Virus record (IMG/VR): IMGVR_UViG_2703718785_000025
DNA: 10,444 bases
Reading direction: 5' to 3' (one strand)
DNA from: a virus
Lineage: Duplodnaviria; Heunggongvirae; Uroviricota; Caudoviricetes
In this document: piece after piece, positions 1,308 through 8,984 of the stretch
Layout: every line of letters begins with the position of its first letter
Numbering within the stretch: position 1 is the stretch's first letter
Program-made: the position numbers and the translations under genes
The notes under the pieces: model-generated
The model's database searches: none
The model's input: the letters and a program-made list of their open reading frames with translations, nothing else
What the model was told of the DNA's origin: nothing

Positions 1308-2749
1308 TCAAAAATCAGCCTGACTCGGGAGCAGTTTTTGCCAGATGGCTGAAACGTATTTCGCCTGGTAACGTGCATCGTTCAGAGCGTTATGGCGTTC
1401 ACCTTCGAATGGAATAGTCGTTCTTGCGTCGAAATCCATCACCAGTCCCAGAGCAACCATCGTTCTTACATCGCGATCATTGGTGTAACGCCACGGGCAG
1501 GGGATCCCCTGCCGTTCATATGAACGGCGTAAAATCACGTTGTCGAAAGTTGCACCGTTACCCCAGACCTGAACAAAAAATTCACCGGAGTTTTCGTCGA
1601 TAAATTCCCGTAATTGCAGCAGTGCATCATCTAACGGGATTTCATCGGTAAGAATGGCGGATTGCGCTTCGCGTGACTGTTTCAGCCACCACTTAATGGT
1701 GTCCCGATCAATGACTCCGCCAGCAGTTTCCAGATCGATAGTTTTGCTGAATTCTGGCCCCATCTCTCCGGTTTGCGGATCGAAAAATATTGCACCTATT
1801 GAGATAATCGGGGCATCAGGATTTTTTCCCATGGTTTCAAGGTCGATCATCAGATGAATCCCCGCTCTGCTGGTGGATGTGAGATTATGATGACCGTTCG
1901 CCTTAATTAAGGGATCTGACGCCTCGCCAGTTTCACTATCGCTGGCATGATGCTGATTGCCGCCAGTGTTCTCCTTGTGCTGATGCGCAGTGCCTTCCAT
2001 TTCCTCCGGATCATTTTCCTGAACTTCAGGCTGATTCTCTTCATCGAATATTTCCTGGTATGTTGCGTCACTTATCACCGCACCACAATCAGGGCAGCTA
2101 CCGCCGCCGGTCTGACCGCAGGCGGTGCAGGCTTTTTCCGGCTCCTGTTTCGTTTCTGGCTCGTTTTGTTGCGCATTTGGGCTGTTTTGTTCCGTTTTCT
2201 GGTCGTTCTGTTCCGATTCTTGCTGGTTCTGGTTCACAGAATCGCAGGTTTCAATCCCCTTCACCCATTTCGGATCATTCGGATCGCTAATCCCTTCAAC
2301 AAATTCACCACGTGATGCAGCAAGCAATTTATCGGCGTCAGGCTGGCTGATATTGGCTGCCTGCATAATTTTGTTTACTTCGTCAGCGGTAACTTTTACC
2401 GGCTCCGGTTGTACGGAATCTTCAGCGGTATCCACATTTTGCGGTAAGTCCGTGTATGTTCCGTTTTTGCGGGCAAGATATTCTTCTTTCGTGATTTCAG
2501 TAGCCCCGGCAGCCAGTGCCTTATCCAGACCAGAAAGTTTGTTTGCGCGACCGTATTTTTCGCCATCCTTGTCGGTGAAGAGGAAGTAGAACGGCCCCTC
2601 ACGCTCTACAGATGGTTCGACTTCCACTTTGCATTCGGTTTTTTCGTTGTCCGGAATTGCCGTTTCCACTGCATCAGTTTCTGGTACTGGCGACGAGAGA
2701 GTATCAGTTGCGCTCTGATTTGTTCCTTCATCTTCAAACACGCCCTTTG
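1308..2749 (-). CDS. Prophage exonuclease, C-terminal portion: Q/N/E-rich linker, CxxC-x9-CxxC zinc-ribbon motif and DEDDh (DnaQ-like) 3'-5' exonuclease domain; 5' end runs into the assembly gap
   Basis: Frame is open from the stop at 1308..1310 up to the first N at 2750. Exo motifs are visible in the translation: DLETMG (Exo I), WGNGATFDNVIL (Exo II), HNALNDARYQ (Exo III, H-x4-D). CTACGQTGGGSCPDCG gives the zinc-ribbon motif. The M at 2741 in the ORF track is a GTG and not the true start. Confidence 0.8.
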
Positions 2750-2850
2750 NNNNNNNNNNNNNNNNNNNNNNNNNNNNNNNNNNNNNNNNNNNNNNNNNNN
2801 NNNNNNNNNNNNNNNNNNNNNNNNNNNNNNNNNNNNNNNNNNNNNNNNNN
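2750..2850. other. Assembly or scaffold gap (101 N), true length unknown
   Basis: Uninterrupted run of n characters; coding frames on both sides are open into it. Confidence 0.97.
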
Positions 2851-3547
2851 TGATTTTTCCTGTTGAATTTTCAGTGTGCTGTTGATTGGCTCTGGCGCGG
2901 GCGAGATCAACAACAGACGTGTATTTTCCGGTTTCCTTGCGTTCACCTTCGCGACGTTTTTTCCAGATGCGCATCTCTGCCTGAATTTCGGGCCATTTGG
3001 CACCTGGCTTACATTTATGCTTAACCCACCCGATGGCATGCAGCTTAAGCTCCGGATACATGGCGTTAACTTCTGGCATTTTCATCAACGCTTCAACGAT
3101 ATGTCCGTCGAATGTTGCCATGTCTTCCTGCAACAGTTCCTGCGCGCTAATCACCATATCAACGGTGATGTTTTCACATGTGTCGAACTTAACCATGACA
3201 GCGTTCTGTACTTCAGGGGCCAGCTTGTCAAAAGTGACGTTTATCGGATCTGATTCAGTCTCAACCGGGACAAAGGAAGCAGACTCCTCATCCCAGCGGT
3301 TTTCCTGCATATATTCAGCATCCCAGGAATCGAGGGCAGGGCGGGGAATACCGGGTTTATCCTCGCAAACAAGAAATTTATAAGCGCAGTCCTGAGCAGC
3401 CGGATAATGTTCCAGGAATTGCCAGTGAAATTTTGCGCGGGCGCGACGTTCATCACCGGCTTCAATGGCAGTGGCTACAGCGACTGCACCTTCTTCCTTT
3501 ATTGCCTGTTCGTCCGGAATGGCGGCGCAAATAAAGACTTTACTCAT
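2851..3547 (-). CDS. Prophage exonuclease, N-terminal portion (probably the same gene as 1308..2749; proteins of this kind are often annotated exodeoxyribonuclease VIII-like)
   Basis: ATG at 3545..3547 with GAGGT about 8 nt upstream. 232 codons (MSKVFICAAIPDEQ...NSTGKI) are open to the gap edge. The apparent frame shift on the far side of the gap is expected if the gap length is arbitrary. Confidence 0.7.
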
Positions 3548-4180: not shown

Positions 4181-4583
4181 CTTTAAAAAGGGCGGCAGAG
4201 CAGCCACGGAGTAAAACTGATACCGCCAAACGTCACCAGAAAATTGATAACAGAGGGCGTTGCAGCGGGGTTGTCACTTAAGCGTATGGTCAACCTGACA
4301 ACCCGGTGTCCTCAACTGGGGAAGGAATAACCCCGCCATACTTACCGCCGCGCCATTTCGCGGATTGCCACAACCGGAAGCGCACGGTCGACGAAAATTT
4401 AACGACAGGCTATCTATGAACCAGCTACCTCGCCGTGCGCTTTCGCGTTATGGTCTGACTTTTCAGGGAAATATCCTTTCAGTAAACTGTCAGTGCCGGA
4501 TGCTCACCCGTGTCCGGCGCACGCACTCCACCTCACCCGTGGAGAACTCCTTAATTACCAACCTTAGCTTCGTTGGTTAGCTA

Positions 4584-5473: not shown

Positions 5474-5502
5474 TTGCATCAGTCCCAAAATGGGACTACT
5501 AT
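5474..5502 (+). promoter_or_regulatory. Putative higBA promoter with operator-like inverted repeat
   Basis: -35-like TTGCAT (5474..5479), 17-bp spacer, -10-like TACTAT (5497..5502). The spacer holds a 7-bp inverted repeat AGTCCCA-aaa-TGGGACT (5481..5497). The predicted transcript start is within a few nt of the higB ATG at 5509 (little or no leader, no SD seen). Confidence 0.4.
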
Positions 5503-5508
5503 ACAGTT

Positions 5509-5811
5509 ATGAAGATTATCTCAGTTAAAACACTCAGGGATTTTTGGGCGGAGAATCCTGATGCAGAACAACCGCTAAGGGCATGGGTGGATGAGGCGGC
5601 AAAAGCTGACTGGAAAAGCCCAGCAGACATTAAGGCACAATACCGAACGGCCAGTATATTGAAAAACCGGCGCGTGGTATTCAACATAAAAGGTAATCAT
5701 TACCGTTTAATTGTTGCAATTGCGTATCAGCGAGGATGGGTATTTGTTAAATTCATCGGAAACCACAAGGAATACGATGCTATTGATGCTGATACCATCG
5801 AACTGGAGTAA
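5509..5811 (+). CDS. higB: Type II toxin, HigB family (RelE/ParE superfamily)
   Basis: 100-aa product MKIISVKTLRDFWAENP...FNIKGNHYRLIVAIAY...GNHKEYDAID, resembling E. coli HigB as recalled from memory. Toxin is upstream of antitoxin, the reversed order typical of HigBA. The track start at 5464 adds 15 residues with no support. Confidence 0.85.
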   Translation: MKIISVKTLRDFWAENPDAEQPLRAWVDEAAKADWKSPADIKAQYRTASILKNRRVVFNIKGNHYRLIVAIAYQRGWVFVKFIGNHKEYDAIDADTIELE

Positions 5812-5813
5812 GC

Positions 5814-6173
5814 ATGAACATCAAACCTATTCGTACAGAGCAAGATTATGAAGCCGCGTTGCGTGCTGTTGAACCCATGTTCGACAATGAGCCCGAAATT
5901 GACACGCCTGAGGGGGATTTTTTTGAGGTGATGTGTTTGCTAATAGAGGAATATGAAAAAAAACATTATCCCATTGAGCCACCATCCCCAATTGAAGCTA
6001 TAAGATTTCGCATGGAACAGCAGGGGCTGACTGTGAAAGATTTGGAACCCGCAATTGGGAAAAAAAATCGGGTTTATGAGGTGTTGAATGGTACCAGAAG
6101 CCTTACGTTACCAATGATTCGCCGTCTTCATAATCAATTTGGTATCCCCCTGGAAAGCCTGGTTGGATTATAA
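5814..6173 (+). CDS. higA: Type II antitoxin, HigA family (XRE-type HTH at the C-terminus)
   Basis: 119 aa; ATG is 2 nt after the higB stop with GGAG 5 nt upstream. C-terminal HTH region LTVKDLEPAIGKKNRVYEVLNGTRSLTLPMIRRLHNQFGIP resembles HigA. Confidence 0.85.
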   Translation: MNIKPIRTEQDYEAALRAVEPMFDNEPEIDTPEGDFFEVMCLLIEEYEKKHYPIEPPSPIEAIRFRMEQQGLTVKDLEPAIGKKNRVYEVLNGTRSLTLPMIRRLHNQFGIPLESLVGL

Positions 6174-6738: not shown

Positions 6739-6999
6739 ATGCAAAAAAGTACTCAAGTGAAAATCCTGTCAATAATGAGCCAATCAGAATTAGGGCGTCG
6801 TCTTGGTAAAACACCGCAAACCATAAGTGGGTGGTTTAAAAAACGAGTGCCAGCGGAGGAGGTTATACCAGCATGTGAGGCGCTTGACTGGGGAGTAACT
6901 CCGCATGAATTGCGCCCTGATAAATACCCTAATCCAACCGATGGTTTACCTGTTGAGTATCAGGCTAACGCACAAGCAGCGGCGGGAGTTGATTCATGA
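6739..6999 (+). CDS. Cro-like HTH protein (YdaS-like)
   Basis: 86 aa; GGAGGG 3 to 8 nt upstream of the ATG. HTH SQSELGRRLGKTPQTISGWFKK is nearly identical to the repressor recognition region. The ...PAEEVIPACEAL...ELRPD region recalls Rac YdaS. Stop overlaps the next start (ATGA). Confidence 0.8.
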   Translation: MQKSTQVKILSIMSQSELGRRLGKTPQTISGWFKKRVPAEEVIPACEALDWGVTPHELRPDKYPNPTDGLPVEYQANAQAAAGVDS

Positions 7000-7433
7000 A
7001 AATCAAGCATGAGCACATCCGCATGGCGATGAATGCGTGGCTGCTTTATCCGAGGGTAGGGCGCAAAAAAATCGCTGATGATATAGCGACAGCATATTTT
7101 GAGCTTGAAATGACTTATCCACCAATGCATGACACCTCTACGACAGAGGGTATTGGATTGAACATACAAAATATTTTTCGCTGGCTTGAAAAGGATACGC
7201 CTGATGCTGTTGAAAAAATTCAGGCACTAATTCCAGCTATCCTGACTGTTCTTCCGCGTGAACTGCGTTATCACCTCAGTATTTTTGACACTGTTGAGCG
7301 CCGTGCATTACTGGCGGCCCAGGAAGCGTTGAGCACGGCAATTGATGCGCATGATGATGCAGTCCAGGCAGTTTACCGGAAAGCGTATTTCAGCGACGGC
7401 GGGTCATCCGGCGAGTCTGTTGTGGTGCATTGA
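6996..7433 (+). CDS. ydaT: YdaT-like protein (Rac prophage YdaT family, CII-analog or toxin)
   Basis: 145 aa: MKIKHEHI...KIQALIPAILTVLPRELRYHLSIFDTVERRALLAAQEALSTAIDAHDDAVQAVYRKA... matches my recollection of E. coli YdaT. GGGAG 7 nt upstream of the ATG. Confidence 0.8.
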   Translation: MKIKHEHIRMAMNAWLLYPRVGRKKIADDIATAYFELEMTYPPMHDTSTTEGIGLNIQNIFRWLEKDTPDAVEKIQALIPAILTVLPRELRYHLSIFDTVERRALLAAQEALSTAIDAHDDAVQAVYRKAYFSDGGSSGESVVVH

Positions 7434-7519
7434 TATTTATGCCAGACCCCTGCTGATTCTGTTGATTGGGGAATCACAGAATATCACCAGAGGATGGTTC
7501 GTCACAAGATGAGGCAATT

Positions 7520-8530
7520 ATGGCCGCATTACCATACATGCAACTGTACATAGCTGATTACCTGGCTGACACCATGCATTTGTCCGCAGAGGAGCACGGT
7601 GCGTATTTGTTGCTGATGTTCAATTACTGGCAAACAGGGAAACCAATACCTAAAAACAGGCTGGCAAAAATTTCCCGTCTGACTAACGAGCGATGGGCTG
7701 ATGTGGAACCATCCTTGCGGGAGTTTTTTTGCGATAACAGCGATGAATGGGTGCATCTTCGGATTGAGGAAGATCTGGCATCAGTCAGGGAAAAATTGAC
7801 CAAAAAATCAGCCGCCGGAAAAGCATCTGTTCAGGCCAGAAGAAGCAGAAAGGAAGCATATGTTCAAACAAAACAAGAGAGAGATTTAACAGGTGTTCAA
7901 ACAAATGTTGGTGTTGTGTTTGAACATGACGCAAACACAAAAGCAACTAATAAAGATACAGATCTAAAAGAATTAAACCCCACACATAACGTGCGTGAAC
8001 GCGAGAGTATTCCGACCAGTGAGTCGCATGGTGCGCCGTTGCAGACAGCCGAACCTGAATACCTGGACGGCCTGAGCGAACCGATCGGGAAATTTTCGAT
8101 GACTACTGTCTGGCAGCCGTCGCCGGATTTTCGACAACGGGCAGCAGTGTGGGGTATGGCTCTGCCTGAGCCGGAATTTACACCTGCTGAGCTTGCCGCA
8201 TTCCGGGATTACTGGATGGCGGAGGGGAAGGTTTTCACGCAGGTTCAGTGGGAGCAGAAATTTGCCCGCCACGTGCAGCACGTCAGGGCACAGGTAAAAC
8301 CAGTCAGCAAGGGGGTAAGCCATGCAGCATCAGGTGGCACGGCATCACGGGCAGTTCAGGAAATCCGGGCAGCACGCGAACAGTGGGAACGTGAAAACGG
8401 ATTTATCAGCAACGGAAACGGCCTGGAAGCTGTGGGAGCTTATGGGGGAGGTGTATTCGAACCGCTGGACTCAGAAGAACGGGGCCGCACCTTCGAAGCT
8501 CTGGATTGCCCAGATTGGTGCGATGACTGA
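7520..8530 (+). CDS. Replication initiation protein, O-like: YdaU/DUF1376 N-terminal domain fused to a DnaT-like C-terminal domain
   Basis: ATG at 7520 with GAGG 5 nt upstream; the track start at 7466 is TTG. N-terminus MAALPYMQLYIADYLADTMHLSAEEHGAYLLLMFNYW fits DUF1376. C-terminal ...VWQPSPDFRQRAAVWGMALPEPEFTPAELAAFRDYWMAEGKVFTQVQWEQKFARH... resembles E. coli DnaT (recalled). Confidence 0.8.
   Translation: MAALPYMQLYIADYLADTMHLSAEEHGAYLLLMFNYWQTGKPIPKNRLAKISRLTNERWADVEPSLREFFCDNSDEWVHLRIEEDLASVREKLTKKSAAGKASVQARRSRKEAYVQTKQERDLTGVQTNVGVVFEHDANTKATNKDTDLKELNPTHNVRERESIPTSESHGAPLQTAEPEYLDGLSEPIGKFSMTTVWQPSPDFRQRAAVWGMALPEPEFTPAELAAFRDYWMAEGKVFTQVQWEQKFARHVQHVRAQVKPVSKGVSHAASGGTASRAVQEIRAAREQWERENGFISNGNGLEAVGAYGGGVFEPLDSEERGRTFEALDCPDWCDD
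7861..7926. repeat. Iteron-like repeats inside the O-like gene (candidate replication origin)
   Basis: TGTTCAAACAAA at 7861..7872 and 7894..7905, plus an inverted copy TGTTTGAACA at 7917..7926. An AT-rich stretch follows (about 7940..7980). Confidence 0.45.
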
Positions 8531-8984
8531 ACAGCAAATCCGTCTGGTCTGCCGTCAGTGCATGGACCGCTGCCGGGCGGGTGAAACGTGGCCCCCGGAC
8601 CTGGCTGAGTTTGTTGCGCTGATTTCGGAGAGTGGGGCAAATCCATTTGGTCTTACGGTGGATGCCGTGATGGAAGAGTACCGGCGCTGGCGCAATGAAT
8701 CCTGGCGATACGACGGGAGTGATAAATACCCGTGGCCACAGCCTGTGCTGTACCACATCTGCCTCGAAATGCGTACCAGAGGGATTGAGCGCCAGATGAC
8801 GCAGGGTGAGTTAAAACTACTTGCAGAACGGCAACTGACGAAATGGGCAAAGCATGTTGGTAACGGGATGAGTGTTCCGCCAGTGCGACGACAACTGGAA
8901 GGGGCGAAACACCCGCAAGGGCCAACGCCAATTGAGCGGCTGAAACAGGAATACGAACGCCGGAAGGCAGCTGGTTTTATTTGA
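8322..8984 (+). CDS. Replication protein P-like (helicase loader); start uncertain
   Basis: 220-aa frame with AGGGGG 6 nt upstream of the ATG at 8322. Segments align by eye to lambda P (ETWPPDLAEFVAL, YPWPQPVLYHICLEMR and TQGELKLLAERQ against PFLPSPGQFVAWC, YPWKSNAHYWLVTNLYQNMR and TDAELRRKAADE). With this start it overlaps the O-like gene by 209 nt out of frame. Alternative in-frame starts are at 8442 and 8523. Confidence 0.65.
   Translation: MQHQVARHHGQFRKSGQHANSGNVKTDLSATETAWKLWELMGEVYSNRWTQKNGAAPSKLWIAQIGAMTEQQIRLVCRQCMDRCRAGETWPPDLAEFVALISESGANPFGLTVDAVMEEYRRWRNESWRYDGSDKYPWPQPVLYHICLEMRTRGIERQMTQGELKLLAERQLTKWAKHVGNGMSVPPVRRQLEGAKHPQGPTPIERLKQEYERRKAAGFI

Follow-up and report, generated by a model that had tools for sequence, protein, structure and literature searches.

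A replication module of a Rac-like Escherichia coli prophage in which the initiator gene and a lambda P-type helicase-loader gene probably share 209 coding nucleotides

Introduction

The closest described relatives of the locus reported here are the O and P genes of phage lambda, the primosomal protein DnaT of Escherichia coli, the ydaU gene of the Rac prophage of E. coli K-12, and the overprinted gene pairs of phages. We analyzed a 10,444-nucleotide (nt) stretch of DNA (hereafter the window), the IMG/VR virus record IMGVR_UViG_2703718785_000025 (Caudoviricetes), which represents a lambdoid, Rac-like prophage of E. coli. The window contains a gene for a replication initiator with a DnaT-like domain, and within the end of this gene begins the open reading frame (ORF) of a P-like helicase loader. 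We present evidence that the long out-of-frame overlap of these two genes is conserved and that the loader is probably translated from its first ATG, inside the initiator gene.

The O and P genes of lambda share 4 nt (ATGA), whereas the pair in the window overlaps by 209 nt out of frame. The two modules have in common their gene order after cro/cII-like genes, an initiator whose N-terminal DNA-binding domain can be exchanged, which has a disordered linker and whose gene probably harbors the origin, and the pairing of the C-terminal end of the initiator with a matched N-terminal half of the loader. The initiator of the window is a functional analogue of lambda O, but a DnaT C-terminal-type domain, a helix and a tail replace the lambda O C-terminal domain. 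Lambda P has four domains (I-IV), of which domain I (residues 1-29) is an intrinsically disordered N-terminal 'lasso' (PMC12661323). Domains III and IV and half of domain II are homologous to the P-like protein, and both proteins have a disordered domain I leader.

DnaT, or primosomal protein I, belongs to replication restart in E. coli, and its C-terminal domain forms single-stranded DNA (ssDNA) filaments (PMC13377028). This filament-forming domain aligns with part of the initiator of the window. Unlike DnaT, however, the initiator does not contain the N-terminal oligomerization domain, its DnaT-like domain is fused to a predicted origin-binding domain, and the genetic partner of this domain is a P-type loader gene instead of dnaC. 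The Rac prophage of K-12 has the same YdaS/YdaT-type genes upstream, and the DUF1376 part of the initiator is 95% identical to ydaU at the DNA level across window positions 7513-7963, but the similarity to ydaU stops before the DnaT-like domain. The K-12 gene ydaV is presumably of the DnaC type. A short match in another genome (hit H45) lies in DNA that carries the annotation 'YdaU family protein | DNA replication protein DnaC'.

Overprinted gene pairs such as A/B and D/E of phiX174 and Rz/Rz1 of lambda also read one stretch of DNA in different frames to make two proteins, and disorder of the product of the less constrained frame is the usual signature of overprinting. The less constrained reading is likewise predicted to be disordered in the window. 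Unlike those pairs, the overlap in the window is partial and reciprocal, the disordered end of each gene sharing its DNA with an ordered segment of the other, and the two products are expected to be partners in one pathway. The domain families, and names such as 'DnaT-like' and 'replisome organizer', are already present in databases. We regard the conserved overlap as defining a previously undescribed form of the lambda O/P module, and no published description of it was found in the searchable literature on DUF1376 with DnaT, DnaT-like prophage replication, lambdoid P overlaps, ydaU/ydaV and PPompW.

Results

The ORF of the initiator and the ORF in the P frame have positions 8322-8530 in common, with P in the +1 frame ((8322-7520) mod 3 = 1), and the P frame contains ATG codons at 8322, 8442 and 8523 (Table 1). 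A scan with one genome per species yielded a comparative set of 41 loci, 29 of which have the long overlap. These 29 loci come from approximately 17 genera of Enterobacterales, including Escherichia, Citrobacter, Enterobacter, Klebsiella, Salmonella, Pectobacterium, Serratia, Erwinia, Rouxiella and Limnobaculum; in them the initiator ORF ends 149-224 nt after the P-frame ATG, and P is always in the +1 frame. Among 20 representatives, 46-75% of third codon positions differ in the P-only region (P3 divergence 0.46-0.75), so that synonymous sites are near saturation. Both frames have thus stayed intact, and the arrangement has been conserved, in well-diverged relatives. Within E. coli the module was found in 1,253 of 5,426 complete genomes, O157:H7 included, at 2,467 places in all and at up to 6 places per genome.

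Table 1. Features of the replication module of the window (positions in the whole stretch; SD, Shine-Dalgarno sequence; AF2, AlphaFold2 model; PGAP, Prokaryotic Genome Annotation Pipeline).
Feature	Positions	Strand	Basis and remarks
Replication initiator, 336 aa from ATG	7520..8530	+	ORF; stop TGA 8528-8530; same coordinates by PGAP in NZ_CP074982
DUF1376 domain, initiator residues 5-87	7532..7780	+	Pfam PF07120, E 8.8e-26, 90.6 bits (cut-off 30.1, passed)
Candidate origin, low-GC stretch (31-39% GC) in initiator gene	7820..7980	.	three exact copies of TGTTCAAACA
DnaT C-terminal-type ssDNA-binding domain, initiator residues 192-258	8093..8293	+	Pfam PF17948, E 2.8e-17, 62.6 bits (cut-off 25, passed)
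SD of the P gene, AAGGGGGT	8309..8316	+	6 nt before ATG 8322; within initiator codons K-G-V; -11.9 kcal/mol with 16S tail
P-like helicase loader, long form, 220 aa	8322..8984	+	ORF; Pfam and PHROG matches; long homologues; AF2/Foldseek match to lambda P
Overlap part A	8322..8417	+	initiator helix 277-292 (ASRAVQEIRAAREQWE, 8348-8395); disordered P leader, residues 1-32
Overlap part B	8418..8530	+	P residues 33-69, first helices of the folded domain; disordered acidic initiator tail, residues 300-336
Internal ATG of P, M41	8442..8444	+	ATG in 28/29 loci, CTG in L022; inside AF2 helix 24-45
ATG of P, M68, RefSeq/PGAP start	8523..8525	+	gives 153-aa WP_000139444.1; 8-nt overlap ATGACTGA

Comparison of the loci strongly supports the translation of P from the ATG at 8322, with a strong SD of its own inside the initiator gene. 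In nearly all of the 29 loci the first P-frame ATG is preceded at 5-8 nt by a GGAGG-type SD. The mean duplex energy with the 16S tail across these loci is -10.0 kcal/mol for the long-form ATG, compared to -6.7 for M41, -4.2 for M68 and -3.4 for the background. The purine motif of the SD is retained although the initiator residues that it encodes vary by locus (GG, RG, GE, EV, GD and others), which points to selection on the nucleotides. In the P protein, residues M41, R48, W49, K52, N53, G54, P57 and W61 are invariant or nearly so in relatives with as little as 45% identity, W38 is present in every locus, and A33/W34 are mostly conserved. An AF2 model of the 220-aa protein, built from a 41-sequence alignment, has a mean predicted local distance difference test score (pLDDT) of 77.5. 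In this model residues 1-24 are disordered and are followed by a helix (24-45), helical blocks span residues 24-104 and 113-180, a further helix spans 203-216, and the pLDDT reaches approximately 89 over residues 31-60. An SD with its ATG, conserved residues and a confident helix all lie 5' of both later ATGs, which is comparative evidence that the loader gene starts within the initiator gene. Translation from 8322 is predicted to give a product that includes MQHQVARHHGQFRK.

The loader family exists in databases in three versions, of 153 aa (start at 8523), 180-181 aa and 220-223 aa, and long-form homologues of 216-223 aa reach as low as 45% identity. The sequence-only reading had left the choice between an unusually long dual-coding overlap and a later P start at 8442 or 8523. 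The SD-ATG and the conservation of residues 33-67 favor the long overlap, and both later starts fare poorly.

A P start at M41 would reduce the overlap to 89 nt and mean that the open P frame at 8322-8441 simply follows from the initiator sequence and is not translated, an arrangement that we judge improbable. It would account for the ATG conserved at this codon in all loci but one, for the PGAP products of 180-181 aa that begin at the M41 codon in Citrobacter, Klebsiella, Salmonella and others, for the fairly strong SD-like match in some loci (-9.3 to -9.8 kcal/mol), and for a P leader that carries no constraint at the amino-acid level and whose openness is unsurprising given the initiator protein. 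However, M41 falls in the middle of a confident helix, with the invariant W38 and the mostly conserved A33/W34 upstream of it, and the SD-like GGGAG 5' of 8442 arises from conserved Trp-Glu codons and is only 2-3 nt from the ATG. The SD-ATG at 8322 greatly exceeds this match in strength and persists in loci with other initiator residues. M41 is therefore unlikely as the sole start; it is possible that it serves as a minor or secondary one.

A start at 8523, with the open frame upstream of it due to chance, is very unlikely. This is the start annotated by PGAP in the inspected E. coli genomes, it would resemble the ATGA junction of lambda O/P, and sequence homology to lambda P becomes detectable close to it, at residues 69-73. 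But the codon equivalent to M68 is not a start codon in 9 of the 29 loci (TTC, CTG, TGC, TGT or CTC), its SD is at background level, and it comes after three helices of P that are modeled with confidence. Purifying selection on residues 33-67 of P matches in strength that on the rest of the protein. Homologues at 45-50% identity also retain the long P ORF. These data effectively exclude 8523 as a conserved start, and the RefSeq start is most probably a mis-annotation, placed 201 bases late and leaving P short by 67 residues.

We give equally little credence to a programmed +1 ribosomal frameshift that makes an initiator-P fusion and for which the overlap exists. PHROG 15931 (482 positions) looks as if it derived from fusions, for it matches the initiator over residues 93-335 and P over residues 1-220; fused proteins such as P0106 (333 aa, DUF1376 plus Phage_lambda_P) occur in databases; and in the Leclercia locus L035 (2441-2692) the P frame passes into the initiator frame within the overlap. 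The P gene, however, possesses its own conserved SD-ATG, and fused entries occur as rare singletons or as pseudogenes with frameshifts, one E. coli copy being flagged as frameshifted by PGAP. The initiator stop (GAC-UGA-A) is without a prfB-like CUU-UGA motif. The overlap varies by locus in length and sequence, and a conserved slippery site was not seen by eye in the alignment, no formal search for such sites having been made. The fusions represented by PHROG 15931, L035 and P0106 are probably frameshift pseudogenes or sequencing errors.

Codon-position variability was used to determine which frame is constrained in each part of the overlap. In part A, variability tracks the codon phase of the initiator, third positions (O3) being the most variable, and it does so in the genus-level set as well as in the E. 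coli-level set. Variability at first and second initiator positions (O1/O2) is 0.33/0.27, comparably low to that of the DnaT-like domain (0.27/0.25). Omega, estimated from site classes after the approach of Wei and Zhang, is 0.61-0.74 for the initiator frame (omega_O) and 0.71-0.91 for the P frame (omega_P). The initiator motif ASRAVQ.IRAAR..W is retained even after unrelated upstream domains. That the initiator frame dominates part A is strongly supported; P needs only an open, disordered leader there, which according to the structural model would be the equivalent of lambda P domain I.

The opposite is found in part B. Here variability tracks the codon phase of P, with values for the three codon positions of 0.117/0.094/0.407 over residues 33-67, as in P-only DNA (0.128/0.110/0.504), and omega_P (0.16-0.39) is the same as in P-only controls (0.31-0.44). 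Dominance of the P frame, which encodes the domain II helices, is strongly supported in part B, the initiator tail being conserved in length but not in sequence. Weaker signals for the initiator tail come from the placement of its stop and from codon choice. In 18 of 20 loci this stop is located at P residues 69-74, where different codon pairs and all three stop codons produce it. Each of the 20 representatives reads past 3-6 contexts in which a synonymous T would create a stop codon in the initiator, with no earlier stop in any of them, and the background T frequency in such contexts is 24%. K52 of P is encoded by AAG, which keeps Glu in the initiator tail, in 17/20 loci compared to a background of 41%, this being a single site chosen post hoc. 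Among E. coli and E. albertii variants, wobble diversity in both parts of the overlap is half that of the flanks (O3 0.095 vs 0.19; P3 0.096 vs 0.18-0.21). A search of the overlap against Rfam gave no match.

Several apparent lines of evidence for selection within the overlap were rejected. Stop avoidance, calculated as 0 of 83 T-ending codons in risky contexts against 24% elsewhere (p ~1e-10) and as 0 of 26 against 36% (8e-6), is invalid because the limits of the regions were themselves set by the first stop or the open frame. Multiplying the results of synonymous-codon shuffles (~0.23 per locus in part B) across loci is flawed in the same way. The tail motifs EPLD, EE[RW] and terminal D-[WF] are, according to the codon alignment, largely forced by R48-W49, K52-N53-G54 and W61...I65 of P; at I65, ATT, ATA and ATC are used freely. 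The sequence-only reading had named selection on a single frame as the outcome of such an analysis that would speak against dual coding; this holds for half of the question, in that locally each half of the overlap is dominated by one frame at the amino-acid level.

The P-like protein is predicted to be a DnaB loader on the basis of its family membership and fold. It matches Pfam Phage_lambda_P (PF06992) over residues 58-187 (E 4.9e-15) and PHROG 109, 'P-like helicase loader', over residues 11-220 (E 7e-62). The top PDB matches of the AF2 model in Foldseek are the lambda P chains of the DnaB-P complex 9OA1 (E 3e-6, probability 1.0). The model has the lambda P fold and a four-domain layout (disordered I, compact II and III, C-terminal IV), and as a model agrees with the description of lambda P in PMC12661323; its global TM-score against lambda P is only 0.45, and residue-level equivalence of the N-terminal halves is not implied. 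Direct BLASTP against lambda P aligns only residues 85-192. Hhalign aligns residues 73-220 with lambda P 82-230 (E 3e-45), and in the profile comparisons (hhalign and hmmsearch) the alignment begins at residue 69 or 73 of the P-like protein and 81 or 82 of lambda P and runs through 220 and 230. Pfam searches with residues 1-75 and 1-40 found no lambda P homology. By sequence comparison, the N-terminal ~72 residues are of a different type, one that is specific to the P-like family of the window. An alignment to lambda P beginning upstream of the initiator stop, from which the sequence-only reading had argued, is thus a weak basis for a long P. We accept the long start because of conservation within the P family, not because of the lambda P alignment.

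The architecture initially proposed for the initiator, a DUF1376 domain joined to a DnaT-like domain, is borne out by Pfam, and the DnaT C-terminal domain is matched among solved structures. Both the DnaT-like and the P-like domains score above their Pfam cut-offs (62.6 vs 25 and 56.1 vs 26 bits, respectively). The ATG of the initiator has an SD-like GAGG upstream. The DUF1376 domain, presumed to be the origin-binding N-terminal domain, is helical with a hairpin in the AF2 model (pLDDT 70-80). It is followed by a disordered linker (114-176) and by the DnaT-like domain (pLDDT 85-90), with residues 184-258 matching E. coli DnaT 81-154 (structures 4OU6, 6AEP and 9ZBT; E ~1e-19 to 1e-20). The C-terminal end consists of a helix (277-292) and a disordered stretch (296-336). 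The initiator scores 94.7 bits against the full-length DnaT equivalog NCBIfam NF002770, below the cut-off of 201, and the match is limited to profile positions 80-156 of 179; only the ssDNA-filament domain of DnaT is present. No Pfam match to Phage_rep_O (PF04492), the lambda O family, was found in the initiator of the window. In some initiators with DUF1376 and DnaT-like domains, of 404-429 aa (P0133-P0137, P0145, P0228; L035 1774-2670), a T5orf172/MUG113 domain (GIY-YIG-related) is inserted between the N-terminal and DnaT-like domains, roughly at the position of the candidate origin.

The stretch of the initiator gene that encodes the disordered linker is also the likely origin, by analogy with lambda O. 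Its three copies of TGTTCAAACA lie within 66 bp, at 7861 and 7894 in direct and at 7917 in inverted orientation, and would represent iterons.

Comparison of the loci indicates a modular organization. At least eight kinds of N-terminal domain were found in the initiators (DUF1376, Phage_rep_O, HTH_36 and several unnamed ones), and 20 of 25 homologous initiators possess the DnaT-like domain. In locus L021, Phage_rep_O is joined to the same initiator tail, with a long overlap. The helix and tail of the initiator are always found with a P N-terminal half of the window type. Nine more distant loci (L038-L046) have lambda O-type initiators, lambda-type P N-terminal halves (domains I-II) and a C-terminal half of the window type (III-IV), and their overlaps are just 4-17 nt. 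The C-terminal end of the initiator and the N-terminal half of the loader thus behave as one inherited unit while the neighboring domains are swapped. Such a unit fits lambda genetics, in which specificity lies in the C terminus of O and the N terminus of P. The P-type loaders are themselves mosaic, with a junction near lambda P residue 115 in L038-L046. The DnaT-like domain is inherited along with the P gene of the phage itself, an association that suggests a role for the domain in P-dependent helicase loading by the phage. The sequence-only reading had taken this domain to suggest direct recruitment of host restart or primosome machinery; the data speak neither for nor against such recruitment of PriA/PriB, and the DnaT N-terminal domain is absent.

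Two orphan P-like genes of Erwinia (L030 2426-3052 and L036 2474-3043) were rejected as cases without overlap since they are remnants that have no initiator and are uninformative. They adjoin host genes (a TtcA-like gene and a phosphotransferase system (PTS) transporter) and retain the W..W..M..Y..RW block and a short leader. In L051 (PP818812.1, by name the Actinobacillus phage vB_Apl-pPE4) the module has 87% DNA identity to the E. coli window, surprisingly close given a Pasteurellaceae host, and is accompanied by YdaT and Ead/Ea22-like genes.

Genome NZ_CP074982 and others are 100% identical to the window across the region of interest. In order, the window contains an integrase gene, genes for a DUF4224 protein and an Rv2179c-like exonuclease, the DicF RNA and a HigB/HigA pair. 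Next come a cI-like repressor gene (minus strand), a YdaS-type Cro and a YdaT-type CII gene, the initiator and the P-like gene, and 3' of the latter are DUF1627, DUF977 and DUF4406 genes. The DicF antisense small RNA is full-length (4190-4241, minus strand; Rfam RF00039, 75 bits vs a gathering score of 48). The HigB-type toxin gene (Pfam E 5e-33) and, after it, a helix-turn-helix antitoxin-like gene occupy 5497-6173 on the plus strand, between the DicF region and the prophage repressor. The genes in the cro and cII positions (6739-7433) match the Pfam 'toxin' families YdaS and YdaT, and in PHROGs the YdaT-like protein falls among the CII-like activators (E 5e-37). A minus-strand ORF of 313 aa (2606-3547) is without a family match and contains 101 N (masked or unresolved bases) at 2750-2850.

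Discussion

The best explanation of these data, and one that we consider quite probable, is that the window, as part of a lambdoid (Rac-like) prophage of E. coli, carries a replication module that combines a modular initiator with a lambda P-type DnaB loader, and that the genes for the two proteins truly overlap by 209 nt in different frames. According to this model, the initiator is read through to its stop at 8528-8530. Its variable N-terminal domain, here DUF1376, would bind the TGTTCAAACA repeats in the AT-rich stretch of its own gene, and the single strand exposed by unwinding may then be covered by the DnaT-type domains. Recruitment of the P-DnaB complex would fall to the C-terminal helix and tail of the initiator, by way of the N-terminal half of P. 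With the partner segments on the same DNA, recombination among mosaic phages would be unable to separate them.

Several observations weigh against this explanation. For every member of the family the case for a start at 8322 is a comparative one, drawn from sequences, and the lineages compared are not fully independent. The P frame is without a codon-like pattern in part A, the confidence interval of its omega_P (0.71-0.91) includes 1, and its openness there is unsurprising given the initiator protein (run-length test p = 0.78; shuffles ~0.7 per locus). The case for translation of part A in the P frame therefore rests on the conserved SD-ATG and on conserved residues 33-40 with the helix that starts upstream of M41, rather than on constraint in the leader. 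In part B, omega_O is ~1; the summed number of risky contexts passed by the initiator is 83, compared to a geometric expectation of 63 +/- 16 (p = 0.12), only the narrow spread being unusual; and mosaic history could account for part of the reduced diversity of the E. coli set. The first ~72 residues of P have no similarity to lambda P detectable by BLASTP, PDB profile search or hhalign, so that homology does not extend over the whole length. The binding partners that we assign to the tail, the helix and the DnaT-like domain of the initiator are all inferred.

Decay in a defective prophage, in which loss of the initiator stop lets the gene run into P without function, would fit an omega_O of ~1 and the many copies in cryptic prophages, some with insertion sequences and frameshifts, but is scarcely credible given the same arrangement in records deposited as complete phage genomes (Rac-SA53 and Stx2a-converting phages with PPompW), its presence in ~17 genera with synonymous sites near saturation, and an initiator stop held within 6 codons by differing codon pairs.

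A true dual-coding overlap raises the further question of whether the co-encoded segments recognize each other. The C-terminal helix and tail of the initiator and the leader and first helices of the loader might be mutually binding surfaces that the 209 nt encode together, with the ordered element of each surface paired in the DNA with the disordered element of its partner. We put this genetic interlock forward as a tentative idea that is on the whole doubtful. If it were true, co-evolving partners would be physically co-encoded, and the specificity of an initiator for its loader would be predictable from the segment.

The overlap has consequences for the study of these proteins. Annotations of the loader gene disagree on its start, giving products of 153, 180 or 220 aa, and the commonest call in E. 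coli probably drops 67 residues, including part of the folded domain, an error that affects structural, proteomic and functional work. To our knowledge, conserved same-strand overlaps of ~200 nt are rare in bacteria and their phages. The one described here shows a clean reciprocal split between ordered and disordered segments, and it links two proteins that need to recognize each other to start replication. It provides a defined, short segment in which to seek the determinants of initiator-loader specificity in a large non-lambda class of lambdoid replication modules, and it places a DnaT-type ssDNA-filament domain in the setting of initiation at an origin.

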